Source of the DNA: Tubulanus polymorphus
Taxonomy: Eukaryota > Animalia > Nemertea
Assembly: GCF_964204645.1 (NCBI RefSeq)
Contig: NC_134028.1
Coordinates: 3,348,001 to 3,412,000 of the forward strand
Length of the DNA: 64,000 nucleotides
Direction: 5' to 3'
A program made the translations under genes and the position numbers. The notes under the pieces were generated by a model. It saw nothing but the letters and a program-made list of their open reading frames with translations. It did no database searches and was not told where the DNA came from. This document shows, piece after piece, positions 2,081-39,477 of this stretch. Positions within the stretch are counted from its first letter, which is position 1; each line of letters begins with the position of its first letter.

Positions 2081-3300
2081 TTATTTTCATAGAACATAGT
2101 TTAGTATAATAATTTATCTTACAAAATACCACAATGAACTATGAACTATGAAGGACTCGTCCTGAGCCTGAAGGCTGTAGCTCTGAACAGAGTGGACGAG
2201 CTCCGGTGACTATGAAATGGATGATGATGACAAAGCTCATCAAAAACTTTACTGTCATAGGATTGGTCTTCATTCTTCATACAGCTAGTAACTGTATATT
2301 CCGGCTTTGTGTATCTGTTGTATTACTGAGTCTAAGGGCTCCAATTCGTCCCCTTCCCCTAATTACGTTAATCACCGATTTCGTTGCAGGCATGTACGTA
2401 CGTACGCTAACCCGGCGTCTCTTACGTTTACGACAAGCATTTTACTGGTGTAAACTAGCGCCGCGGGAGTACGACAGTCTGACTAATTACATAGTCGAGC
2501 AGTGTGATTGAGCCGTTTATCCCTAGTCTTACAGTCGTATAGTCGTGTAATAATTCGCCTTACCAAAAGACGAAACACGAAACATGGAATTTTGTACCTT
2601 CAACGATTTTGGTTTGATGCTATTTGGATCAGGGGTTGCGAAATGAAGCGATATCCATACGTTTAGTTCCAGAGTTCTTATAACCTAGTATTTTGTCTTG
2701 CTGACGCTGGCCGGTATGAAAATCATAGGATCTTTTACTATTCATAGTAACGCATTAATAGGAAAAATGCACGCATTTGACCAATAGCAAAACATGATTA
2801 ATATCTTGTCGTCTCTCGACAGGATATACATGTACATATAAACGACTGTTATCTCTGGTAGAAAACGAAAATTTCATATAAACATTCACAATATTTACGG
2901 AGCCTTTCGGGGCTTCGTGCGTCTTCGTACGTCACCACGAGAATTGACTGTGGCCCGAGGATTGAATCCCGCGGTAATTGGAACTGTCGATTTCGATAAG
3001 GATCCGATACGAAGAGATGAATAAACATAACGTCAGTATCATGTTTATGATCAAGTGCTGCAGACAAGACCCCGCGGACGAGACTTCAAAAATGTACAGC
3101 GACTTTGACATAATACTGTTCGATGAGTCCTTCAAGTGCGACGGACTCGTTTATACATCGGGGACTCGGACTCGGACCGCCGAGAAAAACTTACATCGAA
3201 TGGACGGTTCCGACCGTGAATGGTGCATCCGATGTTTGGTCATTATTATGCGACCTCGGGTCTCGATATGAAACCCAACGATCCGCGATCAAGTAAAAAT

Positions 3301-3587
3301 CGTATCGTATCGTATCGTATCGTATCGTATCGTATCGTATCGTACCGTACCGTACCGTACCGTACCGTACCGTACCGTACCGTACCGTACCGTACCGTAC
3401 CGTACCGTACCGTACCGTACCGTACCGTACCGTACCGTACCGTACCGTACCGTACCGTACCGTACCGTACCGTACCGTACCGTACCGTACCGTACCGTAC
3501 CGTACCGTACCGTACCGTACCGTATCAGTACCGTACCGTACCGTACCGTACCGTACCGTATCGTATCGTATCGTATCGTATCGTATC
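3301..3587. repeat. Compound (CGTAT)n-(CGTAC)n-(CGTAT)n microsatellite
   Basis: Pentamer array visible directly; source of the YRTVP/RYGTV ORFs. Confidence 0.97.
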
Positions 3588-4499
3588 AAAAAGCATCAAT
3601 GATTTCTATAACATTTGCCGAACGTTGCTTCCAATCTATTGCTGTATCTACGTAGAACTCTTTTGATTCGGAGAGATTTGGAAAATTGATGATCTCTGAA
3701 CACATTTTAAATCAGTCTGACACTCATCTGCTTTCCCTGTTAAGTGTAATGTACTGTGCGCAATTTGACTAACGCCCAAAAAGTGCTGGTGAACATTTTT
3801 TTCAAGCGAAACCGACACTTTATAAATCTACGGATTATTATCATTATCAATAGGTTTTCTGCTGATCAGATCGTTAAGAGAAGCTGGACTTTCGAACCGG
3901 GTGCACAAAGCCGAGAACGAATGCGTTTGTGCGCGCGAGTGTCTTTCATACTGTAAGAGATCATTGCCAAATTGCAATAAATGATTGATGCTCGCAAACG
4001 ATGGGCAGACGATCAGTGCTGTAGTACAGATTTCAGATTAAGAAAATGAGATTTTAGCTGTCTGTTTTATGCAGCTCCAGGCCTTGTATCGATCCGGACG
4101 ATGCTACAGTCGGAATTGTATTCTCTATTTGTGCTTATTCTTCGCAGTCTTTCTTTGATTTATGACGTTTCGCCATTGGCGTCTCTAAGAGAAAGAAAGG
4201 CAAATTTACAGTCGGTATCAGCTATCTAACATAGCCGTAAACTTAGCTCGTTAACATTGAACACCAGAATCGATGACCGACCCAATGGATGAGTTTAGGC
4301 CACCTGTGTCTCATAGTCGCTGATCGTCTGCGATCACTTCCACGAACTATCTTCACTATCTCAAGAAACAGATCTCCAGATTCACTAAATCGTCGCTTGC
4401 TTCCTGCACATTTCTTTTTATTTTTATCTAGCATCGGAGACTTGAGGGAAGCAACGTTCAGCGGGAAAATGCTGCGGAGTAACAAGCAGGTTCGAGTCC

Positions 4500-9522: not shown

Positions 9523-9750
9523 CCAGGGGTCAGTTCAATAGACTTGGCTTAGACTTAACACCAGTCTAAGAGCATGTTAGTTCTAAAGCCAATCTAACAA
9601 TTTAAGACTAGTCTAAGAGCATGTTAGTTCTAAAGCCAATCTAACAATTTAAGACCAGTCTAAGACCATGTTAGTTCTATAGCCAATCTAACAACGTGAG
9701 ACCTTAAATTGGTCTTAAGTCTAAGCCATGACTATGGAACTGGGCCCAGG
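9523..9750. mobile_element. MITE family A copy with internal tandem triplication of about 43 bp
   Basis: TIR-like ends caggggtcagttc / ggaactgggcccag; unit agtctaagagcatgttagttctaaagccaatctaacaatttaaga repeated three times. Confidence 0.65.
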
Positions 9751-9997: not shown

Positions 9998-10160
9998 CCG
10001 CGGCGCCTCAGGTTCGGCCGATGGATGACATCATAGCAGTTGAAGGTGATACAGTTAAAATACAGTGTCGGGTGAAAGGCAACCCGAAACCTGTGGTCCG
10101 GTGGTCCAAAGACGGGCGACGTTATAAAAAACGCCGAGGAGTGCGGATACGACGAAATAG
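9998..10160 (+). CDS. NRG-like exon, N-terminal half of Ig domain
   Basis: tttgtag acceptor, gtaatg donor; AAPQVRPMDDIIAVEGDTVKIQCRVKGNPKPVVRWSKDG contains the Ig C...W motif. Confidence 0.92.
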
Positions 10161-13100
10161 GTAATGACGTGTAGGCCCACCACCCAAACAACGTTATCCT
10201 GCTGCGGTAAACGCATTTCAATGTATCGCCGTTTACAAAGACGCCTTCACCTGGCGATAAGGATCGCCGAAATTACATCAAAACCAAAACATAACTGAGC
10301 GAATATCTATGTCCGAAACGCCTTCTCTCATTTTCTTAAACTTTAACCCACTATCGATACATCAGATAAACGAGTAACGAAAATTCGACTTCAAACGGCT
10401 GTAGCGGATGTATTGTTATGTGAAGTGTCTATTTACAAGTGCTACTTAGTCCGTTACTCTACGAGGATGTGTCCCAGGGACGTATTATATTCATAGTATT
10501 TCGTCTTTTTTTTCTAGGCGAGGTTCAACTATACGTATTCGCAGAGTAAGAATTCAAGATGCTGGGGCATATACTTGTACAGCTACTAATATTATGGGCG
10601 ATGTTCGCCAAAATTTGTACCTAGCAGGTATGTATTTTCCTCGATTAGCTGGCGGACATTTTAATAAATGTTTTTCACTACTTAAAACGCCAAGATATTG
10701 TTTTTGGGAAATATATTTGTGGCACGGTCACATATTCCTGGCATTGTCCGTAGAGCGGAGTTACTTCACCAAAGACGCGTCGTTTCTAATTCGATACTAT
10801 TTCTTATCGGTCGGATAGAAACGACTGTCAGACCGTTAAGTCTGCGGGAATAGGATTGAAGTAATTTCATAGCCGATAGAGGGCGATCGAGCTGCTTCTA
10901 TTTCCAAGCCAAACGTTGTTAGATATTTGTCTAAGTCCAACAATCGTTGTCTACACGCATTCTTTCTGATCGCAGGTCTTATTATACACGTCGCACAAAC
11001 TATTGTTCTCAAAGTTCATTGAGTTTATTGCGAAAGCGCGTCACAGCGCTAGAGCAAATTAAGATGGACTCCTGGTTTTGACCAACACCACCACCTGGCG
11101 GGTATTTGACCGAATTGCCGAAAGACGTTCAGAGTTCCCGAATGACTATTTGAAACCTATCGATTAATAAACAACTTCAAAAATCTAGAATTCCGTGAAT
11201 CCTATTGTTCTGGGAAATTATTCGAAAGCAAATCGACCTGTCGCAGGAATGATCTTTTAGAGCTTACCGTTGTTCTTTTTACAGTGAACCGTCGCTCGTT
11301 TGATTTTCAAATAACTGCTCTGTCCACCACTGTACCGGTGATAACGGCGCGAGGTACAAAATATTAAAAACATGTTGTCACCATTTATATTTATCATGTA
11401 TAGCTACTTCACAGCAGCGCCGCCTATATACATTATAGCAGCTATACTAAAGCATAATCAGTAGTGAAATAGTTTAGAACTAGTTTATGTATTTATAAAC
11501 TGTGTTGTCAATATTTGTTGTCGCGTTTCATTTAAGTTACGTGTTATATACGTACTTTTTTTAATTTATCGACTGTTTCAACTTTTTCGAAGTCCATAAA
11601 TCCGATGTCTTTTGTCTATTACTGGCTGATTAATTCTCTGCACGTTTCATCTTCTGGGTTACTAATTAGGTTAAAATATAGATATTTGATATTCTTCTCA
11701 TTTTCGAGATGAAAATCTAGAAATATACGTTTCCCGGTCCGTTTCCCAGGAAATTTGAAAGCTCCAGGAAAATACATCAAATGAATCATTTGCTTTGGAC
11801 ACTACCGTACGAATTCAAAATAATTTTGAGTTACTTTGTGAAAAAAAACTTTTAAATGTTAAGCGGTTCCCTACGAGATTCAGGCAATCTTATAGCTTTT
11901 AGTTTAGAGCCAGACCAGATATGATATGTATATCGTGAATTAGCTTCTTTCAACTTTCTAAATGAAAAATCTTCGCAGCAAATACGTTTATACATTTACG
12001 CAAATGTCGATGTATTTTTTAGTGTGACATCCGAAGTTGTTTTTGTAGTGAATGGCTATATCTCATATATATTAATCAGTGAAGTTGGGAAAATTGATCC
12101 CCGTTCGCTAAAAAAGAATATGTTATTTCGAAAATTCTTTTGTATTTTCTAACAACCGGTATAAGCATGTATACATATTGAATGTTATCCTATTGTGTTT
12201 TTATGACGACAAACGCGTCATCCAAGTTCTCGGAATGCGAATACGCCGAGAATATTTGATTATCAAAATCATTGAGAGGACTAGCCCTTCAGAATACGCC
12301 CACTCGTACGAGACGTCGTGCTAAATCGGACCGGATTTTCTAATTCGCAGACAACAAAAATGAAAAGTCGGCCGTTTAGAATATCATCCAGGCTCGTCGT
12401 GCGACTTAGCTATATGATATATCTATTGGTAACCGGTTCGTTGCCATGCCAACCGCCTTTAACCGTATTTGTTTCTGTAGTTTCCTAATCTGTGCGCATG
12501 CAACTTTTGAAATATTACTTATATGTACTTCGATTTCGTAATTGCAGTTGAAACGAAATTTAATGGTGCTAGCAACCCCACTACCCCCTCACAGTCAGTA
12601 GTTACAACAGTGCCTCGGACCACTCCAAAACCCACAAAATGTAAGTATATGCATTCACCGAGGTAAAGAAAGTCTTCTTTCATAAGAATTCTGTATCAAA
12701 TTACCCACTAGTCAGTATCGAATGGCGAGCAGATCTGTTTTTTAGGTTCATATAGTCCACTGTCTCGTCCATCGTCCGTGAAACTTTCCGCGTATTTCTT
12801 ATTCAGTTTGTTACTTGCACTCGATAAGCGGTTCGATGTACTATGAACGGATTTAAAGTTGCCCACGCGTTTGTTATTATTTGTTATTAAGTTTCAAGCG
12901 GATGTTATTTCTCCGGATATGAATATATGATGAATTAATTAATTATTAGCTGAACGAAGTCGCGGTGAAAACAAAACACGATTAAAAAAAAAAAATCAAT
13001 TACTCTAGTTTTATTGAGATTCTGGTGTCCAAAACTTAAGATTCCCCAGTGCGATTTAATGGTGATTCTGATGACAATAGGCGTCCTCGGACGAGAGGAT

Positions 13101-16100: not shown

Positions 16101-19100
16101 AGGAAAGTACTGATTCTCCTCTGTAACTGGTGTTGGGCGGCTAATGGTCGGTTGACATTGTTTACGACGAGCGCCCCCTCGCGACCGGAATTAGCAATAT
16201 GAGACTTCCTTATATCGACTCAGCTCGCGTGGTCCGTGTTATCTGAGTACAGTGAATTGACGAACAACAGCATACTAGATCAGCCTAATATAACAAAACC
16301 ATCGCCGTTCTTGTGCGAATACGTAATTCATTAAGCAGAAACGTCTCTGTCTTGGTCGGTTTACTATACGGGTGTCTAGACATAAGATGATATCCACGAA
16401 AATAATTAAAAACAATTCAAAATGATTCATAGCGCACGAATGAGAAAAGAACGATGCGACGATATCAAACGTGAGGCTATTCATTCCATAAAACGATACA
16501 GATCAGATACTCACTGATAATGTTTACAATAGGAATTGCATCTAATTCCTAAGGTTTCTTTAATTGAGGGGGGTGAATCCACGTAACACGAGATGATTTT
16601 CAATGGTCGAAAAAACAAAGGTTAACAATGTCCAGAGATAATCTGTTTCAAACGTTGATTTTCTTTTTTTTCAAAATTTCAGCTGCTGTTCAAAATTCTA
16701 CCGTAAAACCTACGGGGCATTATTATCCTTGTGAAAAACAGACGTATTGTCTCAACGGAGGCACGTGTATCTATATTCCAGCCATTAAAGCCAGTTTTTG
16801 CAAGTAAGTGTAAAATGAATTGATTTAGATCATAACATTATTTTATATACTATGTAATTTTCATCTACGATAAGCGTCCATTGTGTCTATATGTAGCTGT
16901 ACATGTATATTATACATATATATTAAGTCAAAACATTAAGAGCTCCATTATTTTGCCGTATGGAACTATTCGACAGGAAACTCTAAGTTCTAAGGAAGTT
17001 CTAAGATAAGATTCTAAGATCCTCGTAAAAACGATAGAATTCATTCGATTACACCAGACCGTTAGAGGTTCATTGTAATCATTTCATTCATATACGCGAT
17101 ACATGTTTATAATGATAGCACAGTTTTGACGTGAAAACAAAAAAAAACTACTTTCCTGGTTTTAAGCCCGAATCGATTTCGAAGACGATTAGGAAACGTT
17201 AAGGTTCTCGATAGTGGACTATTCATATTTACGACATCTGCGGCCCGTTCCAAATCGGGGCTTACGTCCAAAAGTGGTCTTAAAATCATAAGATTTATCT
17301 TAAGTTGTTAGATTGGCTATATAACTATAAGATGGTCTTAGGTCTGAGCTATGGATATGGAACCGGCCTATAATTCGTATAAACTGTATCTACCTAGTTT
17401 AAGGCACCTCTACTATTCAGAACACGGCTGTAGCCTAAACACGAAAAGAACAAATTGAAATTTCATCGATCCTCGAAAATCTAACTATTGAAACGCGTGA
17501 ACAGGGGAGATATTTTCTTGATTCATATATATACTGGGGCACATCACATAATCGTTGCCAACAACGTAAATCTATATAAATCATCGCCGAGCGACAATGT
17601 TGTTAACACTTGGGAATTGTAAGACTAATGTGAGAAGTAAGATGAATGGCATCTCTGACGGTTCTGAACCGTGTTCTCATCAATATATCACTATATTCCG
17701 TACATTCATCACGGGAATTTGATTTGAATACGCGTCGAATAGAACCTCGCAGCGCTGTATGATTAAATGTGCGGTTTAATGTAAGAATGCTGACATTTCA
17801 GCGCACCTTAAAATTGGGAATGGTCTTTTCCGTGGTGCGCGTTGTAATCGAGATTTTCATCCGTAACACTAATATCAATTTACGAATTGACATTACAGCT
17901 TAATGAAATGTAGCGAAACCGGTTTTCGATAGTTTGCGGTCGATGTACACCGCCAATCCATTCACTCAACATCACGTATGAAATACAATTGAAGTTGGTT
18001 CATAAAAAAATATTTCTAGAAATTCGATCTCACATTACCGAACAGCGAGTCAAACAAAAATGTCAAATTTGATGCCAAACTTCGAAAACAATCGCGAGTA
18101 GTTCTGTGTCTTTTGATGCTTTTACCAGGAAAGAAGTTTTCTCTCGTTTTCAATGCAGTCCAGTCTGGAAATATTCCTTTAGAAAAAATAATACGATATC
18201 CAGGTTGTGAAAGGTTTAAGGCTTATTAAAGCCCGACGCACACGACAGACAGAACACGGAAAAACGGATTCAAACGTGTTAGATTTCGGAAACATTGTTT
18301 TCTCGAAAGAAATGTTTCTCATTTCATAACAAGGAGAAACATTCCGTCTCCTGTGTCCGCGTTTCGGTGTGTCGTGTGCGAGGTGTGCGTTGGGCTTTAT
18401 CTGAAAGGATAATAACGATAATGTCTTTCGTTGTGCAACATCAAAAATTTCAAAACGACAATGAATTTTTGGTTACATAATATATGAATTACTATAAGGT
18501 CAACATAGAGATCGGCTCACACCGTGTCCCAAAACAGCAAAATTCCGAATACAACAAAGTTTCCATTTAGCTGATTTTACGACGTCAGATGAGCCAGTCT
18601 CTGAGGACCATGATAAATCTGCTATCATAAGCTAATAAATTTAACACACGACCACGCGCACTTATTTTTGTGTATGTAAAAAATCTATCCGTTCGACGTA
18701 TCCGTATCGTGTTGGTAAGTTACGGGGGACGTCATTTACTCGTGTAGACGTAGCAAACACTGTAGATTATTATTATTATACCAAAACGTATACGTTTTTA
18801 ATGTATCTCATATTATGTCGTAATCACTTTTTGTACTTTCGTTTACCGAGCGTAGCCAGCATGTTACAAATAATGATCGCACAGCAAACGTTTGATAATG
18901 AATTAGTTTCAATAATACATAATTCTATTCGGGTATAACGATTGTGAATTTACCTCTGGAAAAATACTATCGATGTTTGCTGTAGATCATTTTGTTCGTG
19001 TTGGATCGAGATCTCGGGCGAGGCAAGATATAACGAAAATACTGGCTATGCTTTCGATTGTTTCATTTCATAATGAATATGTGTTGCAGGTGTCCTTCAA

Positions 19101-22100
19101 AATACGCCGGTATGCGTTGTCAGGAAATAAATGAGCCCTTCCCAACTTTCTTTCCTAAACTTGATGGCGACGACAGTATGTATCAGAACTTACCACAGTG
19201 TGTCATGCTACCTACAACCCTCGTTTATATAACCAGCGGTGGCTCGCGAAACGACAGAACGCATTTTGTGTCGCACTACGTTGAATTAAAATACACGGAT
19301 CGGATTATTCAAAAGATGAATAGAATTGATCATCAACGAGAGATTCGTTGTGGTTTCTGGCGCATCTCATCTGTAAAAGATAAAAACGCGTAGTACGCTA
19401 TCGTGTTTGCCGTTTCGTGCTTGATCGCCCTTATATAACTAACATATATAACACTAACGTCGAGTCTGAGACAATACGTGGCACGTGGCTAGGGTAGATT
19501 ATTTTCTTACATCAATGGCATCGATTCTGCTGCTCATGGCCACCGAAGTTTCTATACTCTACGTTTTATATTAGAATCATGTTCCTACACATCAGAATCT
19601 TTATGCATGTTCTCGGCATGTTATTATTACATTACCCATCTAAACTCAATCACGAAGAGCTGATCATCCGAAATCTAAAATCCCGTTCCAATACTTATCT
19701 TACGTATAGAAAACAAACAGTTTGATTAAGTTTTGTTTTGTTGACTGACATCTTATTTTTTGAATAGCGGATTTTATTTAACTTTAGACCGTATTCAGTA
19801 CTGACAGAAGATATGCAGTTAATGATAGTTTTGCTATTAGTCAGATGTATTTGCCTCAAAATAGGATTAAGTGCTAAAAAGTCACATACCAAATGGGAAA
19901 GAAAATACACGTACGGCACTTTGCTTTGAATATATATGAATTTCAGATTTCAAATACATGAACTTGATCATGCATGAAATCTCTTGATTAGGAGCATGAT
20001 CCTACTTTCACGTATGATATATTACCCATGGCCAGCCTTGGACATCGTGATAAATTTCAGAAGAAAATGGCTTTGTATTACACGGTGTCCGTGGCTAGCC
20101 GCTTTTATCTTAATCTGAATATGATTATAACTGGCGCTTGAATAATGTATAACCATGCTTATCTACCAATAGGTGCCCGAAGGAGTTTACAGGAAATCGA
20201 TGCCAAACTAAAGACATTTTTACTCTCTTAAGAAAAATGAAGAGTATGTATATACAAATCTCGCTTCTCTGCATGCCCGCATGGTCCCACGAATTATGAT
20301 CATATATATGTGTGTTCTATAAAGTTACGTAGTGTCAAATGCTCGAACAGTACGCGGTCAAAACAACCAGCCAGACTATTAGAAGTTGGGTTTAGATTGG
20401 AAGTTCAGCCTGTTCTTATCGATATATATTAAGGCTTTGTTGATAGGCGGGATGCAATAAGCTCGGATCTATTGTCCGTTACAAAAATCTTTTTCTTGCG
20501 ATTCCATGATAGACGACAGCGGTGGAAGCTTAAACCGCTCCTCATTTTATCAATAAAAACAAGAAACTCCTACGTTTTCGATGTAGATAATGATTACACG
20601 GATCTTATTCTAATTCGTTCTAATACAGCGCCAGACATGGACACGTTGACGTATGTCTGTACAATTTTACCAGCTATCTGCAAGAATGAGGTAAATGTCA
20701 ACATTATCAGGCGAAAGAACCTTCACGTATTTATGTTACACATATATTGGAAAAGATATAAACCCACGCGATACTGGGAATTCTATATGATTCTCTAAAA
20801 GAAAATATAAAAACGATTTAGATTGATAAATAATTCATCACTTCTGCCGAACTTTTTTCTATTCCCGATGGCGTGGACCTATCCTAGCCTCTTTAAACCC
20901 CTTGTAAGAACATCTTATGCTGTCTGGTACATATCTATTTTATTGAATATCGTAAACGCAACTTGCATACAGATGCATCATCATGTCTCCTCCTGACATT
21001 AACATTTTTTGTCATCTTCTTGTTTCTTCTTCTTGCCTGATCCACAACTCGGATTTCGCCAGTTTTATTGCGTAGAAAAAAATCGTGCGCTCATAAACAA
21101 ATTTTTGTAGAACGAATGGGTTTCTACAAGCCGTTGTCTAACCCAAGCATCATTTGCGTTTATATAGCTGGTATACGTCTCGCAACTTTTTGAGCATTTC
21201 ACTCGTACATTTCTTTATGTTATTTCGCATATCATATATTATACCATATTATATCTATCTATCTTTCTACAGTAAGTATATTGTGTCAGAAAAAGTTACC
21301 TTTGGAATAAAGGGGGATAAAGCCATAATGACGTCACTTATAGCTTTGCCAGGAAACTGAATCGTTTTAAAACAATTCCGCTTTCTGGCAATTCAAAACA
21401 CAGAGCATTTCCCACGACTAAATCATTTTCTGTATATCTACGTGGCAACTAAAATTGACGAGAGAAAATGCTGCGAGTCATTTTGTTATCGTTTTACTCG
21501 TGAATATTCTTCACGAATTTCAGATGTTCCTGTCAAATTTCCACAAATAGATAACTTCTATCACGAGTGTGTACTTATGTTTTAGTCCTACCTCAGTTGT
21601 GCTTGAATGTCTTACCGCACAAAATGGATCTAATGAAAAATAAAATGTCGTTTTAAAACAGTAACTAACTAACGAACCAGACGTGTGCGAAGCTTCTCGA
21701 TTGTAATCTAATTCAATGCTCGATTAATCGTTTTTTTTAATTTTTTTTTTTAATTTGGTTCCAATTGGGCCATTACTTTTCAACTAACAACAATAATTTG
21801 ATTTACAAAATATCTGAACGATTCGTCAATCTGTTATTATCAATAGTATAAGTGGCCGATGTTTATAACACAAGTTAGGCGCGTAAGTCACTTACTGTTA
21901 TGTGATTATTTTTGACTTATTAGTAGTGAATACGGTGACGTGGGGTGGCCCCGAGAAGGACACACGATTTTGTCGTTGACACTTTGAGGTTACGTTTTTA
22001 GCGCTTGTGTACCCATTACGTAAATGATATCTACGTCATGCGATCGACCTAGTTTACTTCATTTAGATGATAGGATCAAGTATCAAAACTCCGTTTTCGG

Positions 22101-25100
22101 TTTTGTCCCCGTAATCCCACATCGTCAGTCATATGATATGCATAACCTTTGCGGTGTAAGAAAATGTTGGATGGTATTGAACTGGGTCTCGAGTTTCGTT
22201 CGGAAATGTCAGCGATACAGAGTAACCCGAACCAGGAAACACCACTTCGGTTTCCTGGTTATAAATAAAAATGATTAAATAATTCACATTCAAGTTCTGG
22301 AATTTATCCTAACTTCAGCAAAATGTTAGTTTCGCAAAAATAGATTCGAATCGCTATCGACAAAAATCGCATAATTCTGTATTTGGTTTCGAGTGACCAT
22401 TCGCGTCTATTTTGTTCTCAATAGAAATGATATGAACTCCAGTGCACAATTTCGTACCCGTATCACTTGGTATTCTTACTATAGTGTTTCTCACTGTCGA
22501 TGTTCTTGTGTTTAAATGTCTGCACGCCCGCCGCCAATGTATAGTCCACACCATGTACTGTCTATCATCATCAGTATTTCAATTTTTCATTGAGATATTA
22601 TATTATATATGAGCAAAAATATATTCTATATGTCTGCGCACCGCATGCCCATAACGGGAGCGTATTCTGAGTTGTTTATAACATTGTTCTCTTATTTAAT
22701 TGAAATCGTTTGTTATATACTATAGGTTATATATACATTTGCTCTTTTAAATTCATTGATTTATTCATATTGATAAATACTGATAATCAATGTAAATTGT
22801 AGTTAAGATGACTAATTTCCCTCCTCGTAGCTCTACGATATTCACCGAGATAAATCGGTGCCTGTTGGCGCCGTAGATACAGAGCTTGCTTACAATGATA
22901 CTTAAAAAAAGGGGAAACGGTGTTTAAAAGGTTATCGTCTATATGCGACAGGAGTCTGAAACCCAGTTTAACCTCATACAAGATGGCGGAGTTTGCAGTT
23001 AAATTTTCAGTGAACGGAACTGAAAGTTTAATTATGAACTATATGGTTATAGTGGTGCCTTAAAATCATTACATGACTATGGCCCTTTGTATAGTAAGAA
23101 TTGTTTAATAACACAGGTAGCCATACGGCGATACAACAGACTGAGTGGTATGGACTTTGGTTAGCGCGGGCCTGGTCTTCGAATGTCGCGTCTGCATCAA
23201 AAAGTCCAAAAGGTATGCGTCTTAAGGGAGTCCTTAACGAGTGACATGTATGTTGTGATGGTGTTTGTATTACTAAGAGCTGCCTACCTATTTTCAGGTT
23301 GACACACTAAGTGTGTGATATAATTATTAAATGCCAGCTGGCCGGTTGCCTCACGTGCTACTCTTCCTGGGCTGCTAATTCAAAAGCAGGGGGATGAATT
23401 TCATGAAGGTACTCTATAATAATCTGTGTTGTTCGTGGGCTTTTCTCGATCTGCACCGATATACCCTTTTACCTACGTACCCCCCACGTCACCTCGTCAC
23501 TCAAATCACTCATCATAACTACATTTACATTCACTCTCTCGCGTTGTTACATTGTGTTCGTCCTTAGTTACGGCAGTCAATGTGTCGGTGTTGTCCAGCA
23601 GCCAGACATTGTTGCTTAGCAACCAGGAAAAGAAAGCCCACTAAAATTTTAGAATTATGTGGTAGGCGGCCTTTAATGTTTTTGTTGGCATATCAGTTTT
23701 TTTTGTATTTTTTCTAAGTGTATCGGATCTGGTCTGTTCTTTTTTTTTGTGGCAGGGAATCAGCAAAAATCACATTATATCATAAGTGCAATGTATATTG
23801 AATTCTGTTTTAAAGTTTCAATATTCATTTCACACTTGTTGAATATTGTGCGCCGTACGTTAAAGTGGATTCCAAGTGGAACTCACTAATTGCGTAGGAC
23901 CTACATTTTTTCGTGATATTATAACCAATTATTTTTGTTATTTTATGTATGTATGTTTATATAAATTTTTCATATTGTCCAGCATGTATCTTTACTAAGA
24001 TTGTTAGATATTATTACGAGATGGACAATCTTCGTAGTCCAGTTATAATCCCTGCATGCCGAGCATGTTGTCCATCATTTGCATGGTACATAACGCGAGT
24101 CATTTGAATCTTCTTCGAAAATCTGATATTTCGGTAAGATGATAAAAGCGGTTTTAATGAATACAAATTCATTTACGGAAGATTAAGTTGTATATCGGTT
24201 TTCAAACTTAGAAATAATGTGTAACGGCTCAATTCATAACAGCAACTTCATGAATATTATGAAATTTGGCTGGTTGTGTTTCTAATGTTTCGATATCGAT
24301 GTATGATGTATGTCTTTATCGTGTTACAGGAGCCGAGAGACGTCATCAGGATCGGGTCATCACTGTCCTTGGTATTGTTATAGGTGTGCTAGTACTTTTA
24401 GGAATGTGTCTAGTGGCCTATTGTTTGGCTAAGTAAGTTGAAGATGTTACTCCGATCAACTTTCAGGTTTCCTTGTTTCGTAAACATGATATGATGGTGT
24501 TTGTTTACTATTACCTTATTAGGAAACGTCGTGAAGATTTCCACCGGCGACGACAATGGCGGCAAAAGGTCAAGGCTGATATTCGAAATGAAATGGCCAC
24601 AGATCAGCCTTCCGGACCGGAGAAAGTAGTTCCTGTGAAACCTAAAGTCACACGTCTAAGCAGTGTATGTTGATATGGCGTTGAGTTATGTCGTGAAAGG
24701 TTTAAGAATTTCTGTGTAATCTATATACGCAAGTTCTCTATTTGAATTTCTTTTTACATTTGTAGCAAACACAAACTGAACCAGTTCGAGTTGAACCGAT
24801 CAACCCTATAGACTGTGACTTTGAAGCTCTTTTCCCTAGAATGAAAGTCGGGATGACTACTTTGCCGACAGATGAAGCCAAACCTTCTTCAGACAGCCGA
24901 CCACGGCTGAGCGGAATCTCAACAATGCCAAAACCGGAACAATGCCTGCAAAATACGCCAGCCATTGGTGAGTCCGATCAGGGTTCAAAGGATAGCACTC
25001 CTTCCCAAAGTTCCAAGACAGAGTCGGCCCTTAGATGGCGATATAGCAGCGAAGACGCCAACTCGCGCCCAGGTAGCTGTATCGAGCAGGAACCGACAAG

Positions 25101-25542
25101 TGATTACGACAACGCCGATAGCGATATAGAAACAAAACTCAGTTGTGTGCCTGCTTATGTGAGCATTGATAGCGATCCGGGAAGTCTACAGCAGCTTCCA
25201 GACGCAAACGCGCATCAGATCGCCGCGCAGGTGATTCGGAATTTCGGCTCCGGCGATGCGTCATCGTCGAGCGATAGCGACAGTGACGCGTCCAGCGAAC
25301 GCGACATCTTGCTACATCGACGAGTAGCAGCGTTGGTAGGTTCGAAAGGTAGCAGCGACCAGAGCAGCGCCGGAGGAAGCTTAACCTGGGACGAGTACGG
25401 GAACACGTACAGCCCGTATGCAATAGACGATGATTTAGATACAAACAACAAATACTTACGTGCTGCGTATAATGATCGAAACATCGACCAGCACCAACAC
25501 CTGTTGAACGTTCGGGAAAATCAAGAGGCGGTGCCTCTTTGA
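9998..25542 (+). CDS. NRG: Neuregulin/vein-like membrane-anchored EGF-family ligand (5' exons not identified; spliced CDS)
   Basis: Exons 9998-10160, 10518-10627, 11285-11353, 12548-12640, 16683-16803, [19090-19175 or 20173-20243], 24330-24432, 24523-24664 and 24766-25542 all have AG/GT boundaries with compatible phases. Together they give an I-set Ig domain, S/T/P spacer, EGF domain (intron between Cys4 and Cys5), TM segment RVITVLGIVIGVLVLLGMCLVAYC (compare NRG1 RVLTITGICIALLVVGIMCVVAYC) and a cytoplasmic tail ending NQEAVPL. Confidence 0.92.
10518..10627 (+). CDS. NRG-like exon, C-terminal half of Ig domain
   Basis: tttctag acceptor, gtatgt donor; RGSTIRIRRVRIQDAGAYTCTATNIMG contains the DxGxYxC motif; phase 2 to 1. 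Confidence 0.92.
11285..11353 (+). CDS. NRG-like spacer exon 1
   Basis: tttacag acceptor, gtacaa donor, 69 nt, phase 1-1; VNRRSFDFQITALSTTVPVITAR. Confidence 0.7.
12548..12640 (+). CDS. NRG-like spacer exon 2 (mucin-like, T/P-rich)
   Basis: ttgcag acceptor, gtaagt donor, 93 nt, phase 1-1; ETKFNGASNPTTPSQSVVTTVPRTTPKPTK. Confidence 0.82.
16683..16803 (+). CDS. NRG-like common EGF exon (Cys1-Cys4)
   Basis: tttcag acceptor, gtaagt donor; TGHYYPCEKQTYCLNGGTCIYIPAIKASFC; phase 1 to 2. Confidence 0.92.
17242..17368. mobile_element. MITE family A copy
   Basis: TIRs ggcccgttcca / tggaaccggcc; same internal core. Confidence 0.65.
18227..18399. mobile_element. MITE-like element
   Basis: Terminal inverted repeats taaagcccgacgcacac / gtgtgcgttgggcttta plus subterminal complementarity. 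Confidence 0.6.
19090..19175 (+). CDS. NRG-like EGF C-terminal exon A (alpha-like)
   Basis: ttgcag acceptor, gtatgt donor; CPSKYAGMRCQEINEPFPTFFPKLDGDD; phase 2 to 1. Confidence 0.87.
20173..20243 (+). CDS. NRG-like EGF C-terminal exon B (beta-like; mutually exclusive with exon A)
   Basis: aatag acceptor, gtatgt donor; CPKEFTGNRCQTKDIFTLLRKMK, close to NRG1-beta CPNEFTGDRCQ; phase 2 to 1. Confidence 0.87.
24330..24432 (+). CDS. NRG-like transmembrane exon
   Basis: ttacag acceptor, gtaagt donor; AERRHQDRVITVLGIVIGVLVLLGMCLVAYCLA. Confidence 0.92.
24523..24664 (+). CDS. NRG-like juxtamembrane cytoplasmic exon
   Basis: attag acceptor, gtatgt donor; basic stop-transfer stretch KRREDFHRRRQWRQK; phase 2 to 0. 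Confidence 0.85.
24766..25542 (+). CDS. NRG-like terminal exon (Ser/Asp-rich cytoplasmic tail)
   Basis: tttgtag acceptor in frame with ORF 24841..25542; ends ...NQEAVPL-stop. Confidence 0.88.
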   Translation, partial: QTQTEPVRVEPINPIDCDFEALFPRMKVGMTTLPTDEAKPSSDSRPRLSGISTMPKPEQCLQNTPAIGESDQGSKDSTPSQSSKTESALRWRYSSEDANSRPGSCIEQEPTSDYDNADSDIETKLSCVPAYVSIDSDPGSLQQLPDANAHQIAAQVIRNFGSGDASSSSDSDSDASSERDILLHRRVAALVGSKGSSDQSSAGGSLTWDEYGNTYSPYAIDDDLDTNNKYLRAAYNDRNIDQHQHLLNVRENQEAVPL

Positions 25543-30139: not shown

Positions 30140-32438
30140 ATGTTTGCGGCTGTGCTTTGTGCCGTTTTCTTAGCCGTTACTGTCCACGGACAGGTAAAAA
30201 ATGCTATATTTTACTGTAAATAAAATAAGAAAAATTATCATATACTTCAATATTTTCTGGTTTAATAGTGGAAAACGAAGGTCGAGAAATTAATTACAGT
30301 TATTTTTATATTGTCTTCGTTTTCAAGGACTCGGAATTTGAAAAGTATAAACGTAAGTGAATCGTAATACCTATTTGTAAATAGCTTCGAAACATTCTTT
30401 TATAATCAAACCGGTATCTTTTAAATATTCATTCGAAACACGAATAGAGGAAAATCCGATGGAGTTTTCTGGCAAATATCAAGGCGACATCGACATATCG
30501 AGCAGTGGAGCGGTAAGCATAGAAATTCATCTAACATATAAGAAATGAATTTTAATGGGTTTTCTTTGTAAGATATATCTAATGTTTGTCATAAGTAGAG
30601 TCGCAAACAATATTCTGGTTAACAGAATTGAATGATCAGGCTAAGGGTTTGATTTCACTTTTATCCGCGTTAGTTAGAAAATGTAAAAAGAAACATGAAA
30701 CGAAATGGACCATTTTCTTCACAAAAATATTGGGTGATTCGAATTTCAGTTCCGTAATGCTCTGGTCGGCGCGCGTCTATGGTACAACAACGTCGTTATC
30801 TATGACGACAAGCAGATGAGTAAGTTCTATGTCGATAGGTGAAGCCAATGACAATGTCGTGAAATGTGTGTGCATTTATATCTCTACCGCGTGATTGCAG
30901 GTCCGTACGGTCAGGATATGATACGACGAGCTTTGAATGAGATAACGCAGAGTACCGGAGGATGCATCAGATTTAAACGTAGAACCTCGGCAAATCAGCA
31001 AAATTTTGTTAATATTTTCAGCGGAGACGGGTACGTGGCACAATTATTTGTCTATGTTAGATTATGAGATAATATAGGACACTCGTGTCATTTTGTGAAG
31101 TGGTGTTTATGGCAGCATCGTATATAAAGAACTAAAACCAACCATATTTCAATTTTATCATAAATATAAATGTCTCTCAAACGTCCATAAAATTTCAAGG
31201 GTATCGATCATACGTACTTATCTGAGAACGTTGTTGATAATATAGTATATACGCTGGACGACTGATGAAGTTAAAGTAAAAACCTTGATTTACTCGAACA
31301 GGCCTTTTGTCTAACTCGGGCAAGAATAAAATCGATGACGCCCGTTCTTATTTTTCCTGTCTCAAACTGAAACTTCGCTTACCTCACGGTGACCGTTTGT
31401 CCGACTTAGACGACGTTTACCTTATATTCGAAGAACAATGTAACTATTCGATCTACATTTTGTTCTCTTCTCTCAAGTTGTTACTCGCAAGTCGGTATGG
31501 TCGGTGGTGCTCAGAAGATGTCGCTGAATGAACAGGGCTGCGTTCATAGTGTTGGTACAATTCAACACGAGTTTCTGCACGCACTCGGATTCATGCATGA
31601 GCAATGTAGATCCGACCGGGATAGATACCTTCGAATCAACTGGGACAATATACAGCGCAGTAAGCAGTCATCTAATAGAACAACGAGAGAAATACCACAA
31701 TAAATTCAGCCAAAACGAGCAACTTGAATGGATGAGTATATATATTTGCGCAACGTTTCGGCTAAAGACTATTAGCCATCATCAGGCGTACTGAAACATT
31801 CTTTCATGAAACATTCAGTACGCCTGATGATGGCTAATAGTCTTTAGCCGAAACGTTGCGCAATCATCTATTCAAGTTTCTCGTGTTGGCTGAATTTATC
31901 GTGGGATTTCTCTCGTTATACACGGATATTGTGTATCTTCTCGTCGCATCTAATAGAACAAATTTGTTTAAAAACCGTCTAATCTTTCTGATGATTTTTT
32001 GTTTGTTTTAGATATGGCTTTCAACTTTGACAAGGCGAACACAAACAATCAAGACTCTAGGTACACTTATGCATCGATAATGCATTATGGAAAATTTGCG
32101 TTCAGGTAATGAATTTGTTTGTTTGCTTGTTCCATCATGTATTTTGGATATTTTGTTCAATACACTTGACAAATATGAAACATAAGACCATGTCGACAAT
32201 TTATTTGATAATGATCGTCTCGCATTCCATAAATATCAATCAGATTTGTGTGCGAATTCACCTTTGATACTACCATGTTTCAATTAATTATTTCCTATAT
32301 TCATCGATTGTTTCGCAATACTTTTTCAGTGCTAATGGACGACCCACCATGGTGCCCGTTCAGGCAGGTGCTCAAATCGGTACAAGAAAGCTGCACAATG
32401 TTGATATCAAGAGATTAAAGATTCTTTATGGTTGTTAG
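30140..32438 (+). CDS. Astacin-family (M12A) zinc metalloendopeptidase, secreted, catalytic domain only, 242 aa
   Basis: Eight exons (30140-30193, 30328-30352, 30448-30512, 30750-30819, 30901-31030, 31478-31659, 32012-32105, 32330-32438) total 729 nt in frame. Signal peptide MFAAVLCAVFLAVTVHG; prodomain YQGDI (Asp-switch); FR/NAL activation site; zinc motif HEFLHALGFMHEQCRSDRD; Met-turn SIMHY; terminal LYGC. Confidence 0.95.
31749..31788 (-). ncRNA. Minimal type I hammerhead ribozyme motif (antisense arm)
   Basis: Exact reverse complement of 31821-31860. Confidence 0.62.
31821..31860 (+). ncRNA. Minimal type I hammerhead ribozyme motif
   Basis: cgc-CTGATGA-t-ggctaa(tagtct)ttagcc-GAAA-CG-TT-gcg: conserved core, stem II, palindromic ACGT stem III, 3-bp stem I. 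Confidence 0.65.
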
Positions 32439-33101: not shown

Positions 33102-34088
33102 TTATTTCTGACGAACAATAGTTTTTGATATACAATGTCTAAAAATATTTTTTAAGTTCTCTCGCAACTCACGCCCAGTCAGAATATACAGATAGAAGTT
33201 TGCCGAGTAATTCCAAATAGAAAGATTGTCGGATATGAGATAGATCGTCGTTAAATTCTCCGCCCATCCCGGAATCAGAAAAAGTGTTATCACCACCGAA
33301 AATGGAACCGTTGTTACTATGAAAAACACACATGCTGAAACGACCATGACGGCAACTTGGTTAGAATCGGTTTGAGTTTTTGACGACGAAATGACCTTCC
33401 TTGCAGACCTCATTGATACAAGGATAATCATAGTCGCTACGCTGAGAACGATAGCCGGTAGGTAACACATGAAGACAAACATATAGGCAGTGTGCAGAAG
33501 AGAACCAAGTGGGGTATAATAACAAGCAGGTCCATCAGTAGGCATCGTGAACCAGAAAAACAAGAACCACAACATATTTATCGATTCAACCAGGACGATT
33601 GAAACATTTGCGACTTTCATTGTCCAAAATCGAGGCCCTCTGAACGGAAAAGTGATAACAGACATTCTTTCTAACGAAACTAACATGAGAATCGTGGGGC
33701 TGCTGCAACTTGTTACATTCAACACATAAAGAAAGAGTCCACATTTAGTGTACGAACTCAAATTGATGCAAAGATCACCCGAAATCTGGAAACAAATATT
33801 GTTCAACAAAACGCAAAACATATAAACAACGAGAAACGTATCGTTGAAGGCAATAGCGATAAAGAATCTACTGTATGACTTCTTCCAGGTTTTCTTATGC
33901 ATCATCGATATGATGATAAGACTGTTACCGATTAAACCAAATATGACGATGAAAACCATGTTAATATTTCTCATCCACCAAGATATATCTATGTTATCCG
34001 CGCGAGGGGATACGTGCATTGCTATATCTAGATAAACGCGTTTGTAAACCGTCAAATCAGTAGTGCCCTTAGCCGTGTCGTTCATCAT
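33102..34088 (-). CDS. Class A (rhodopsin-like) 7TM GPCR, FMRFamide/peptide-receptor-like orphan, paralogue 1
   Basis: Intronless 328-aa ORF with 7 hydrophobic segments; GLIGN (TM1), IAFND (TM2), LER (DRY variant), TTVP (TM6), NYSANFYLY (NPxxY variant). Confidence 0.93.
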   Translation of the reverse strand: MMNDTAKGTTDLTVYKRVYLDIAMHVSPRADNIDISWWMRNINMVFIVIFGLIGNSLIIISMMHKKTWKKSYSRFFIAIAFNDTFLVVYMFCVLLNNICFQISGDLCINLSSYTKCGLFLYVLNVTSCSSPTILMLVSLERMSVITFPFRGPRFWTMKVANVSIVLVESINMLWFLFFWFTMPTDGPACYYTPLGSLLHTAYMFVFMCYLPAIVLSVATMIILVSMRSARKVISSSKTQTDSNQVAVMVVSACVFFIVTTVPFSVVITLFLIPGWAENLTTIYLISDNLSIWNYSANFYLYILTGRELRENLKNIFRHCISKTIVRQK

Positions 34089-34411
34089 TTTCTCAGTAAA
34101 CGTTACCCAATCACTGGTCTTGAATTTCTCTATACAGCCTTTGTCTAACGACGGACGTAAGATGCAGAGAATTTTTGAAAGAATGAAACTATATATAGAT
34201 TCACATTACACAAATGGAAATGCTATAATCACATCAAACGACATTTATTTTGAAATCATTTGAATTGCGATATTAATGAAAAATTATATAAATACAAATT
34301 TGAAAGTATACACGTTTAAATGAATCTAACTGCACATTTTTTTTTTTAAATCGTTTTCGATGAAAATTTCTGGTGTCGACTTTTCTCATGTTTCTGCGCA
34401 GAATTTTTCGT

Positions 34412-35255: not shown

Positions 35256-36248
35256 TTATTTCTTACATATTATAATGGACTTTGTTAAACGATTTCTGAA
35301 CATAATCTTTAAGTTCTCTCGCAACTCACGCCCAGTCAAAATATACAGATAGAAGTTTGCCGAGTAATTCCAAATAGATAGATTGTCGGCTATTACATAA
35401 ATCATGGTCAAATGTTCACCCCATCCCGGAATCAAAAAAAGTGTTATTACCACCGAAAATGGAACCGTTGTTATTATGAAAAACACACATGCTGAAACGA
35501 CCATGACGGCAACCTGGTTGGAATCGGTTTGAGTTTTTGATGACGAAATTACCTTCCTGGTGTATTTCATTGAGACAATAATGATTAAAGTGGATATGCT
35601 GAGAACGATAGCCGGCAGGTAACACATGAAGATAAACATATAGGCAGTGTGCAGAAGAGAACCAAGCGGAGTATAATAACAAGCAGGACCGTCAGTAGGC
35701 ATCGTGAACCAGAAAAACGAGAACCACAACATATTTACCGTTTCAACCAGGACAATCGAAACATTTGCGACTTTCATTGTCCAAAATCGAGGCCCTCTGA
35801 ACGGAAAAGTGATAACAGACATTCTTTCTAACGAAACTAACATAAGAATCGTTGGGCTGCTGCAACTTGTTACATTCAATATATAAAGAAAGAGTCCACA
35901 TTTAGCGTACGAACTCAAATTGATGCAAAGATCACCCGAAATCTTGTAACAAATATTGTTTAACAGAACACAAAATATATAGACAATGATAAACATATCG
36001 TTGAAGGCAATAGCGATAAAGAATCTACTGTATGACTTCTTCCAGGTTTTCTTATGAATCATCGATATGATGATAAGACTGTTACCGATTAAACCAAATA
36101 TGACGACGAAAACCATGTTAATATTTCTCATGCACCAAGATATATCTAGGTTATCCTCGCGAGGGGATGCGTGCATTGCTATGTCTAGATAAACGCGTTT
36201 GTAAACCGCAAAATCAGCGGTGCCCTTTGCCGTGCCGTTCATTGTCAT
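35256..36248 (-). CDS. Class A 7TM GPCR, paralogue 2 (tandem duplicate)
   Basis: Intronless ORF whose first ATG is at 36248 (330 aa); same motifs as paralogue 1; about 45 aa differences by manual count. Confidence 0.93.
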   Translation of the reverse strand: MTMNGTAKGTADFAVYKRVYLDIAMHASPREDNLDISWCMRNINMVFVVIFGLIGNSLIIISMIHKKTWKKSYSRFFIAIAFNDMFIIVYIFCVLLNNICYKISGDLCINLSSYAKCGLFLYILNVTSCSSPTILMLVSLERMSVITFPFRGPRFWTMKVANVSIVLVETVNMLWFSFFWFTMPTDGPACYYTPLGSLLHTAYMFIFMCYLPAIVLSISTLIIIVSMKYTRKVISSSKTQTDSNQVAVMVVSACVFFIITTVPFSVVITLFLIPGWGEHLTMIYVIADNLSIWNYSANFYLYILTGRELRENLKIMFRNRLTKSIIICKK

Positions 36249-39146
36249 TAGCAGCACCCAATCACGGTTCTTACTTGAATACCCCGGGAATGTCTAATGA
36301 GGAAGAAAATGAAATTACACGCCATGTGTTAAATCATATATGTAATATTTCATCATGTTCGAATGAAGATGCTAAACATATCAAAATTCTATTTATGCCA
36401 TTATAACGTTAATAATATGCGTCAATAATCTGATTTTTCTTTCATATTCGTTGCATCGTATCAAATATCCACAGGAGGCATTTAACTCAAAATCGTATTC
36501 GTATCTTCTAAACACGCCGTACATGTAAAATAAAATCTATTTATAATCTCTTAATGGACAATTCAAGCGACATTCTAAATTGCCAACAAATTGTGATGAT
36601 ACATTATTTTGTATAGACCAGTTTATCACGGCATCCTTACATCTGGATGAAATTATTTTCGTTTACATTTAATACGGAGGAAGTTGTTAATGAGAATTTT
36701 AAGGTATTGCACGATAAATCACGAAGTTCGCGTGCGATGGTATTGTGAGTTTTGTCATCGCATTTTCAGTTCGTGAAATATGACGCCAGGAAATTGTCTG
36801 AATAACGAATGTTGCAGTCTTCGCTTTGACGTATGGATATTTAAGCGACAAAAAGGAATTTAGCTTTATAATAAGCTCGGGAAATAAACTATGTCTTCTG
36901 AATGTTATCAATCAATCATTGATCGATGAGCTGTCATCTGCACTAATTATCGAGTAAACACGATTTAGAAAATTAGAAAAATAAGAAAATCTCCACGACA
37001 GATTTCTTTAATGATCCAGGTCGATTCGTTCAGTCAGGTAACAGTGGTACCACGACCACGGTGGAGTGATTGTGGGCTCCGAGATCGGTCCAGTGAAGGA
37101 CTTTGACTGGAACACAACGAAATGAAACGGGCATATATTATACTGCAAAGGGTAACGTATCAAGCACGTTGAGCAGGTGGGAAGCCAAAAGGGCCTAGAC
37201 TGACTGCTGTTCTATTAGTTGCGGGACGAAAAATTGCCCTGAAAAATGCCGTTCTTTTTCATTAGGGCACGTGATAATTGAATGTACTCCTTGTGCTCCC
37301 ATTTGGGCCCATTTGGTCCCACCTGGATCTGCCCCTAGATCCCACTGCACCTGGTAGGATGGGAAATGTAGATGGGGATAAGTTTCTCGTCCTTTATGCA
37401 ATGATGGAATGTTAGATATTGTACCCGGAAGGTTGGATTAGGTCAGTATATACGCACTGTGCGGTGGTGGAACAGACTAGATCGATGTACATGACGGAAC
37501 TGAATTTTCAGATTTTATTCATTGGTTTTCGTGCACCAGGTGATGAGACTTCGCGATTGCGATTCTATCCACCTTTATCTAATTCTGTTTCTACAAATGG
37601 TAATTTGAACTTTTTTCAATCGCTTCTCGCTTTAAATGACGTCGGAAATTTATACGTCTCCGGTTTACTTGATCAACGCGTTCGAATCGATTTGTCGCGA
37701 ACGGAAACTCGCTTTATTTCAACTTACAATTTTCAGTCGATTTTGAATTTGTTTTTTCCTAATTCTCTATCGTCTGATGAAATCTTCTATTGGTTATCGA
37801 TTTTTAGAAAGTGTCCGCGATTTCAATTAGTGTAATCTAGTTTATCTATCGTCGTATTGAAACCCTCCAATTGCGCAAACAATCAAATTGAGTTTGAGAA
37901 GCACTATGTACTTTCTAACTAGTGTTTCTATTAAATAGTCTATAAGATAAATCAAGAGGAAATCGTGCTCACACTTTCTAACATTTGATGCAGCCATTTA
38001 ACGTAAATTCTTCTATTTCTATGAGCTACTGATCATCGACAATATCAATATAATGATATTAACACGTACGGTGGTCATGCATTTTCTCTTATGAAGTTCC
38101 CTTGTATTTCATGATGTGTCTGTTGTTACTGAGCGTGGCTGGCCCCGTCTTGCCTTTGATAATGAAAACCTCCGATAATTTACAGGATCAAGCGATTATG
38201 ATGTTGTATCGGTTAAGTCGCCGCTATAGACTGCTCCTGATCGATAGGTTGACATTTTGGTGTTCATATTATTCGATGAAAGGGTGCGTCTTTATGTCAC
38301 AGTCTAGTGTTACAACTTATAGTGTTACAATACAACGTTAATCAATTATCGCAATAGGTTTTTGTGCCTTTTGAAACAGATTCAATAAAAATCAACGATT
38401 TTGTCGGCCAGGTACTATATATATAATATGGATATTTAGGCTTGTACATGTTATGTAATGATACGTGCAATTGCTCGGAATGAAGAATTACATGAGGCGG
38501 GCGTAGGTTGACTTGCGACGCGACGCGTTCGGTTGCAACTGGTCACAAATGAGTATGTACGGACGCAACCGTCTACGCTGGCGTGTCGTGTAATCTGTCT
38601 CTGTCATTCGCACGAGTAGTGTACACCTATGTGGTTCGCGACTGCGGGGAGACGGTCGCGTCAAGTCGCAGAAAGTAGAACGTGCAACTCATTGTAACAT
38701 TCTCAAGGCCGTCCTTCAGCATGCTTTATAGTACACAAATCATGACATAAAGAACGTACGTGATTTACTAAAATATCAACAAAAAGTGAAACCAACGATT
38801 CGTTCTATATCTCTGTTGGCCTTAATCAGCGCCAACACCATTTTTGACTAATGCAATTCCTTTAGCGTGCAAATGAAAGAATTAAGTTGGTCGGTTTCCG
38901 GTGGTGGCTACGGTTTCATTGGATCCGATTACTGCGGTATAGTACTTTGACATTTTATCGCGTATTTGCGACATAGAAAAGACGAGTAACCCAGATATAT
39001 GAACTAAAAGCACAACGCGACTAACGGACCAAACATTCAATTACTTGCCCTCCCACGCTAACGGTGGATTAACACGGTTCCTGATGCGCGGTCGTCGCAG
39101 TAATTTCTTACTGAAAAAAAGGATACGAATCGATCTCATCTTTCAT

Positions 39147-39477
<331 letters not shown>

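Follow-up and report, generated by a model that had tools for sequence, protein, structure and literature searches.

Two tandem EGF-completing exons in a neuregulin/vein-type gene of the ribbon worm Tubulanus polymorphus

The stretch analysed here, a 64-kilobase (kb) window of contig NC_134028.1 of the nemertean Tubulanus polymorphus, carries most of the coding part of what is, by its predicted domain make-up, an Ig–EGF–transmembrane gene of the neuregulin/vein type. Our reading, to which we assign a probability of roughly 0.7, is that this gene contains two tandem exons (A and B), each able to complete the EGF domain begun by a common upstream exon, and that the choice between them yields two EGFR ligands differing in tail and stalk. 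The pair would go back to a single exon duplication that preceded the divergence of nemerteans, annelids and molluscs. In the mechanism we propose, inclusion of either A or B likely gives two ligands for the animal's EGF receptor, which would differ in the tail that contacts the receptor and in the stalk, the site of putative shedding; transcripts with both exons or neither would be removed or truncated. B would be the form with a conserved hydrophobic contact at the sixth residue after Cys6 (+6) and a short, predicted helical stalk, and A the variable, Pro-rich, flexible form.

The common EGF exon is a 100% match to a RefSeq protein of T. polymorphus. Protein mapping places residues 162 onward of the RefSeq protein on nine exons per isoform within the window, whilst residues 1–161 (signal peptide and NRG2_N-like domain) fall outside it. 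The exons are as follows (window positions; lengths in nucleotides, nt).

9998..10160, + strand: first exon in the window, Ig (I-set) domain (RNA contig joint, Pfam I-set, RefSeq protein mapping)
10518..10627, + strand: second Ig domain exon (RNA contig, Pfam, RefSeq mapping)
11284..11352 (approximate limits), + strand: optional 23-codon spacer exon (in isoforms X1 and X2; skipped in X3 and in the RNA contig)
12548..12640, + strand: Thr/Pro-rich spacer exon (RNA contig, RefSeq mapping)
16683..16803, + strand: common EGF exon, Cys1–Cys4, 121 nt, phase 1 to 2 (joints 12640>16683 and 16803>19090, Pfam EGF, RefSeq mapping)
19090..19175, + strand: exon A, Cys5–Cys6 and an 18-residue Pro-rich acidic stalk, 86 nt, phase 2 to 1 (RNA contig; RefSeq X1 and X3)
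20173..20243, + strand: exon B, Cys5–Cys6 and a 13-residue basic stalk with Phe at +6, 71 nt, phase 2 to 1 (splice signals and frame; RefSeq X2; counterparts in Lineus and Owenia)
24330..24432, + strand: transmembrane exon, 103 nt (RNA contig joints, RefSeq mapping)
24523..24664, + strand: first cytoplasmic exon (RNA contig, RefSeq mapping)
24766..25542, + strand: last coding exon (cytoplasmic tail) to the stop (RNA contig, running on to 27042; RefSeq mapping)

Pfam places an I-set domain (above cut-off) and an EGF domain in the Tubulanus protein. The NRG2_N match is weak in this species (25.5 bits against a cut-off of 27), reaches 34.8 bits in the Lineus orthologue and is likewise over the cut-off in Argopecten. 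The nearest Atlas clusters to the ectodomain are NRG2 and vein (0.90–0.91). The NRG-type EGFR ligand, which combines an EGF domain, an I-set Ig domain and a transmembrane region, has been dated to Bilateria (Barberan et al. 2016, PMC4914847; this and the other papers cited here are drawn on in excerpt), and all three elements are present in the Tubulanus protein. Ligands of EGFR/ErbB receptors are further marked by a splice site between Cys4 and Cys5 and by an EGF module near the membrane segment (Stein and Staros 2006, PMC1618406); both marks are found here, with the RNA contig joint 16803>19090 at the splice site. The Arg preceding Cys6, the equivalent of EGF Arg41, a residue whose role is described in PMC4282322, is present in both exon A and exon B. 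An earlier note on this DNA, made from the sequence alone, had identified the locus as an invertebrate neuregulin, and this holds in that the gene encodes an Ig–EGF–transmembrane ligand from a non-vertebrate source; the possibility raised there that the sequence might prove to be vertebrate is contradicted by its identity to the T. polymorphus record.

The arrangement described in that note, in which two exons each supply Cys5 and Cys6 after a Cys1–Cys4 exon, was borne out in both position and translation. Exons A and B each have an AG acceptor and a GT donor and run from phase 2 to phase 1; translation confirmed that including both or neither shifts the frame. Either exon alone leaves the frame open to the stop at 25542; A and B together give a stop at 20231, 257 nt upstream of the last junction, and omission of both gives one at 24432, 142 nt upstream of that junction. 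Under the rules of nonsense-mediated decay, stops placed so far before the last junction are likely to trigger decay, and we infer that both-exon and no-exon transcripts are truncated and are likely decay targets. The further claim that the frame forces mutual exclusion was overstated: steric exclusion of A by B was rejected, because the A–B intron of 997 nt leaves no steric bar to joint inclusion, and the resulting products are merely truncated. In wild-type mouse Nrg1, transcripts without the beta exon and the stalk have been observed (PMC3176322).

An acceptor followed by the motif Cys-x5-Gly-x-Arg-Cys occurs at exons A and B and nowhere else on either strand of the window, and no third Cys5–Cys6 exon was found within 16804–24329. 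Amongst 300 simulated 7.5-kb introns, one contained a single such match and none contained two. Exon B fits the Pfam EGF model better than exon A (24.9 vs 20.4 bits). A second haplotype differs by 40 substitutions over 7481 bases, none of them in A or B, which is uninformative because only 0.84 substitutions would be expected in these exons (P = 0.43). Read-through of the B donor adds 18 codons before a stop (window 20244–20299), with an AATAAA at 20552, and read-through of the A donor adds 72 codons (window 19176–19393); either would be predicted to give a secreted product that, like NRG1 beta3, has no membrane segment.

The stretch is present in four sequencing runs, one of which (X4, RNA-like) has spliced contigs. 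A 3643-nt contig from this run, with GT–AG joints, passes from the common exon to A and on to the membrane exon, skipping B. Of the junctions proposed for checking in the earlier note, 16803>19090 and 19175>24330 were thus seen in assembled contigs, whilst no joint into or out of B was. The three RefSeq isoforms divide between the exons, with A in X1 and X3 and B in X2. The 23-codon spacer exon (11284–11352) represents a second alternative event, being left out of both isoform X3 and the X4 contig. A 784-nt unspliced X4 contig (22971–23754; depth 14) lies in the intron between B and the membrane exon and is the deepest of the intronic pieces listed.

Protein records gathered by searches and cluster look-ups cover 23 named invertebrate species, with two large clusters seen in part (15 of 94 and 15 of 22 members). 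Two different Cys5–Cys6 segments, attached to the same Cys1–4 half and the same membrane segment, were found in 18 of these species: Tubulanus, Lineus, Owenia, two Patella, Argopecten, Pecten, five Mytilus, Saccostrea, Ostrea, Magallana gigas, Mercenaria, Ruditapes and Dreissena. Every species with at least two EGF-bearing records (18/18) shows two forms; Ylistrum, Mizuhopecten, Magallana angulata, Mactra and Pinctada are each represented by a single record. The two forms occur in nemerteans, an annelid, limpets and bivalves, that is, in three lophotrochozoan phyla. The earlier note had proposed that the system is either ancestral to bilaterians or convergent in this lineage; since both forms recur in the annelid, limpets and bivalves, convergence confined to the nemertean lineage is excluded. 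The genes that RefSeq calls 'pro-neuregulin-like' in Lineus, Patella, scallops, mussels, oysters and clams, together with the Owenia gene, have orthologous architecture with two Cys5–Cys6 forms, the isoforms being automatically annotated. For these relatives we infer tandem exon structure and order from the proteins. The scallop forms also differ in the residue separating Cys4 from Cys5, Gln in one and His in the other, as would be expected of a codon interrupted by a phase-2 intron. Logan assemblies, too, contain both Argopecten forms and both forms of the oyster (Magallana) type, which, for proteins encoded by multiple exons, implies spliced RNA.

Some records depart from the two standard forms. 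Three Logan proteins of the oyster cluster (P0246, P0251 and P0252; 12, 4 and 3 contigs) end a few residues past the A-type segment and are candidate secreted isoforms. In Mytilus, records P0263, P0265, P0267 and P0268 have 18 further residues, two of them Cys, inserted between Cys4 and the A-type Cys5; these probably stem from an upstream alternative acceptor. A search of a representative library with the whole protein was dominated by multi-Ig proteins and gave two new orthologues amongst the 150 matches listed; a metagenome scan returned 53 pattern matches and no relative of the gene.

To compare the pairs with one another, a joint A/B labelling was sought for 14 invertebrate pairs from eight lineages, vertebrates being left out, with 400 column-swapped sets as the null. 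One labelling was best at both 16 and 18 columns, where 4/400 and 2/400 null sets, respectively, did as well. When single lineages were left out, P fell below 0.05 for Tubulanus and Owenia at both lengths, for oysters at 16 columns and for scallops at 18 (at 18 columns: Tubulanus 0.009, Owenia 0.003, scallops 0.041). A 22-column tree separates mostly A from mostly B forms with weak support (65/94) and is mostly unresolved, 2 of its 26 branches being starred. One duplication within lophotrochozoans would be the best, though unproven, reading of these comparisons.

At the fifth residue after Cys6 (+5), Tubulanus has Glu in exon A and Ile in exon B; the Ile aligns with EGF Leu47, which packs into the domain III pocket of the receptor (PMC4282322). 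The earlier argument from this Leu47-like position named the Tubulanus residues correctly but fails as a general rule, since a hydrophobic residue in B with a polar one in A is found in 1 of the 14 invertebrate pairs and the same residue occupies both forms in 7. At +6, by contrast, Phe, Tyr, Ile or Leu is found in 12/14 B forms and 0/14 A forms, a difference that is partly circular because the labelling was drawn from the same data. The tail after Cys6 is 12–14 residues long in 14/14 B forms and mostly basic there, and 9–23 residues long and mostly acidic in A. Within the Cys5–Cys6 loop, Tubulanus A and B have 14% identity over 14 variable positions. AlphaFold predicts a helical B tail continuous with the membrane helix (residues 362–429), and a low-confidence coil for the A tail. 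As far as can be judged from sequence, the conserved contrast is the hydrophobic +6 residue and the stalk rather than the Leu47-like +5. As loop, +6 and tail all differ, exon choice alters three parts together: the final loop of the EGF domain, the tail that contacts the receptor, and the stalk; effects on affinity and shedding are putative.

Vertebrate NRG1 and NRG2 share with the worm gene an Ig–EGF–transmembrane precursor, a common Cys1–4 exon and two alternative Cys5–Cys6 exons, the vertebrate alpha exon lying upstream of the beta exon. The NRG1 exons are named for their lengths: E130 is followed by E68 in alpha or by E59 in beta, with E24 and E103 further on (PMC3176322). The worm exons of 121, 86, 71 and 103 nt leave the same remainders on division by three as E130, E68, E59 and E103, and the membrane exon and E103 are equal in length. 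This agreement in phase does not prove a single duplication, because the Cys4/Cys5 intron is general to EGFR ligands, amongst which it is near-invariant (PMC1618406, PMC11686035). From Cys5 to Cys6, NRG1-beta and exon B share 8 of 10 residues, and the B-form EGF stretch has EGF and NRG1-beta chains as its top PDB matches; PDB searches with the whole protein or a B-class alignment had Ig proteins alone amongst the best 60. A Pro follows Cys5 in beta, in 12/14 B forms and in 5/14 A forms, and the Ruditapes A form opens, by eye, with the same four residues as human alpha; these two points favour matching A and B to alpha and beta, whilst the +6 position argues against it. Approximately unbiased (AU) tests reject none of the arrangements compared (A as alpha, p = 0.18; the swap, 0.19; a separate vertebrate duplication, 0.48). 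Unlike NRG1 and NRG2, the worm gene is without the Pfam Neuregulin intracellular domain; unlike NRG1, it shows no distinct stalk exon in either the spliced contig or any RefSeq isoform, and the post-Cys6 tails of the worm and NRG1 forms do not align convincingly. NRG1 beta is 10–100-fold more potent than alpha (PMC3176322, PMC13466763), and by analogy B may signal more strongly than A, a supposition that we consider evenly balanced. Drosophila Vein and C. elegans SISS-1 also have Ig and EGF domains and the Cys4/Cys5 intron; unlike for the worm gene, no alpha/beta choice is described for them in the available passages of PMC11686035 and PMC1618406.

Several results weigh against the reading set out above. 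In Tubulanus, no contig of run X4, the one RNA-like run, covers exon B or its joints, and the use of B in this species rests on RefSeq model X2; the absence of B from the X4 contigs says nothing against the exon itself, because such assemblies drop minor bubbles. The evidence from relatives consists of proteins, not of genomic exons or exon order. If scoring is restricted to the 10-residue Cys5–Cys6 span, a labelling other than the one adopted here comes out best; leave-one-out P falls below 0.05 in just three of the eight lineages at either length, and never does so for Lineus, Patella, Mytilus or the heterodont clams. The 22-column tree needs five changes of A/B label, placing Mytilus A with B forms and heterodont B with A forms. 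The predicted B-tail helix has a predicted local distance difference test (pLDDT) score of about 50–74. As to the vertebrate link, the Pfam Neuregulin intracellular domain (PF02158) went unmatched in five proteins (P0001, P0005, P0002, P0008 and P0010) and is present in pike NRG1 (P0028). Pike NRG1, the sole vertebrate pair scored, matches A to alpha and B to beta in direction at chance level (P = 0.38 and 0.24), and in vertebrates it is alpha, not beta, that has the bulkier +6 residue.

The alternatives bear on different parts of this reading. If Tubulanus exon B were a silent relic, or an artefact of annotation, the lack of an RNA contig over it in run X4 would be accounted for, but we regard this as highly improbable, given the intact frame and splice sites, the close counterparts in Lineus isoform X2 and in Owenia, and the better Pfam EGF fit of B than of A. 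It is also unlikely, though less so, that several independent duplications or exon homogenisation occurred inside Lophotrochozoa, in which case some mollusc pairs would not be orthologous to that of nemerteans. The clustering of Mytilus A with Mytilus B, the position of Lineus A with B forms and the resemblance of heterodont B to Owenia A would follow from such a history; against this stand the two forms in all 18 multi-record species, a joint partition that beats its null, the class-to-class match of the Tubulanus, Owenia and scallop pairs at 18 columns, and a single A clade that is not rejected (p-AU 0.18). A different possibility, which we entertain with some doubt, is that the switch mainly sets shedding or stalk geometry and both EGF domains bind about equally. 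The Gly, the Arg and both Cys are kept in A and B, +5 is identical in half of the pairs (7/14), and the clearest conserved contrasts are those of tail length, charge, Pro content and predicted helicity, all as expected of a stalk switch; the low identity of the Tubulanus Cys5–Cys6 loops, and a conserved hydrophobic +6 that adjoins the Leu47-equivalent position of the domain III pocket (PMC4282322), point instead to a difference in binding.

The relation to vertebrates is finely poised. Descent of the human NRG1/NRG2 alpha/beta pair and worm A/B from one exon duplication in the protostome–deuterostome ancestor stands, in our judgement, at even odds; independent tandem duplications of the same Cys5–Cys6 exon in lophotrochozoans and vertebrates are a serious possibility, which we hold tentatively. 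Given the near-invariant Cys4/Cys5 intron, any duplicate of the Cys5–Cys6 exon would automatically acquire these phases. Making pike alpha and beta sisters costs just 0.27 log-likelihood units relative to the best tree (p-AU 0.48), the +6 pattern is not common to vertebrates, and the isoform comparison covers lophotrochozoans and one vertebrate pair. Conversely, in the best tree pike alpha falls with predominantly A forms and pike beta with predominantly B forms, again with weak support (65/94), and the Pro after Cys5 and the Ruditapes A start link beta to B and A to human alpha; moreover, the presence of the pair in the same gene family of both superphyla is more simply explained by one origin.

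In vertebrates, where the neuregulin alpha/beta choice has been studied, it determines potency on ErbB3/ErbB4. The occurrence of the same splice architecture in nemerteans, annelids and molluscs means either that it is that old or that it evolved twice in the same gene, and in either case it cannot have arisen only to discriminate amongst the vertebrate ErbB paralogues. A splice choice of the alpha/beta style probably has a much greater age or a wider distribution than so far described. A published reconstruction gives the ancestral bilaterian a single EGFR and a single NRG-type ligand (PMC4914847). If there was one bilaterian duplication, the pair would be older than the four ErbB receptors and would have persisted for >500 million years as a means of adjusting a single ligand on a single receptor, via strength and shedding. 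The purpose of the weak alpha form becomes testable in a simpler receptor setting, such as Owenia, oysters or mussels. With most subscription papers outside its reach, a full-text search turned up nothing, by title or abstract, on alpha/beta splicing of invertebrate neuregulins. The terms 'isoform' and 'splic' are absent from the main text, as available, of the pan-metazoan survey PMC4914847, whose supplements may bear on the matter, and the available passages of PMC11686035 mention alpha/beta for NRG1 and NRG2 only. The isoforms are already in RefSeq and GenBank; their conservation as a system appears to be undescribed.

Elsewhere in the window, further genes and repeats were noted.

30852-31700, + strand: exons of an astacin metalloprotease gene (Pfam Astacin)
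33102-34205 and 35256-36293, - strand: two tandem, similar, single-open-reading-frame genes for rhodopsin-family G-protein-coupled receptors (Srw-type matches)

A five-base tandem array and long dinucleotide runs, with repetitive open reading frames, lie at about 3270–3600 and 39100–39500. A very high-copy repeat with a summed contig depth in the thousands occurs twice, at about 9550–9750 and 17260–17330, with inverted joints; it is possibly a small inverted-repeat transposon.

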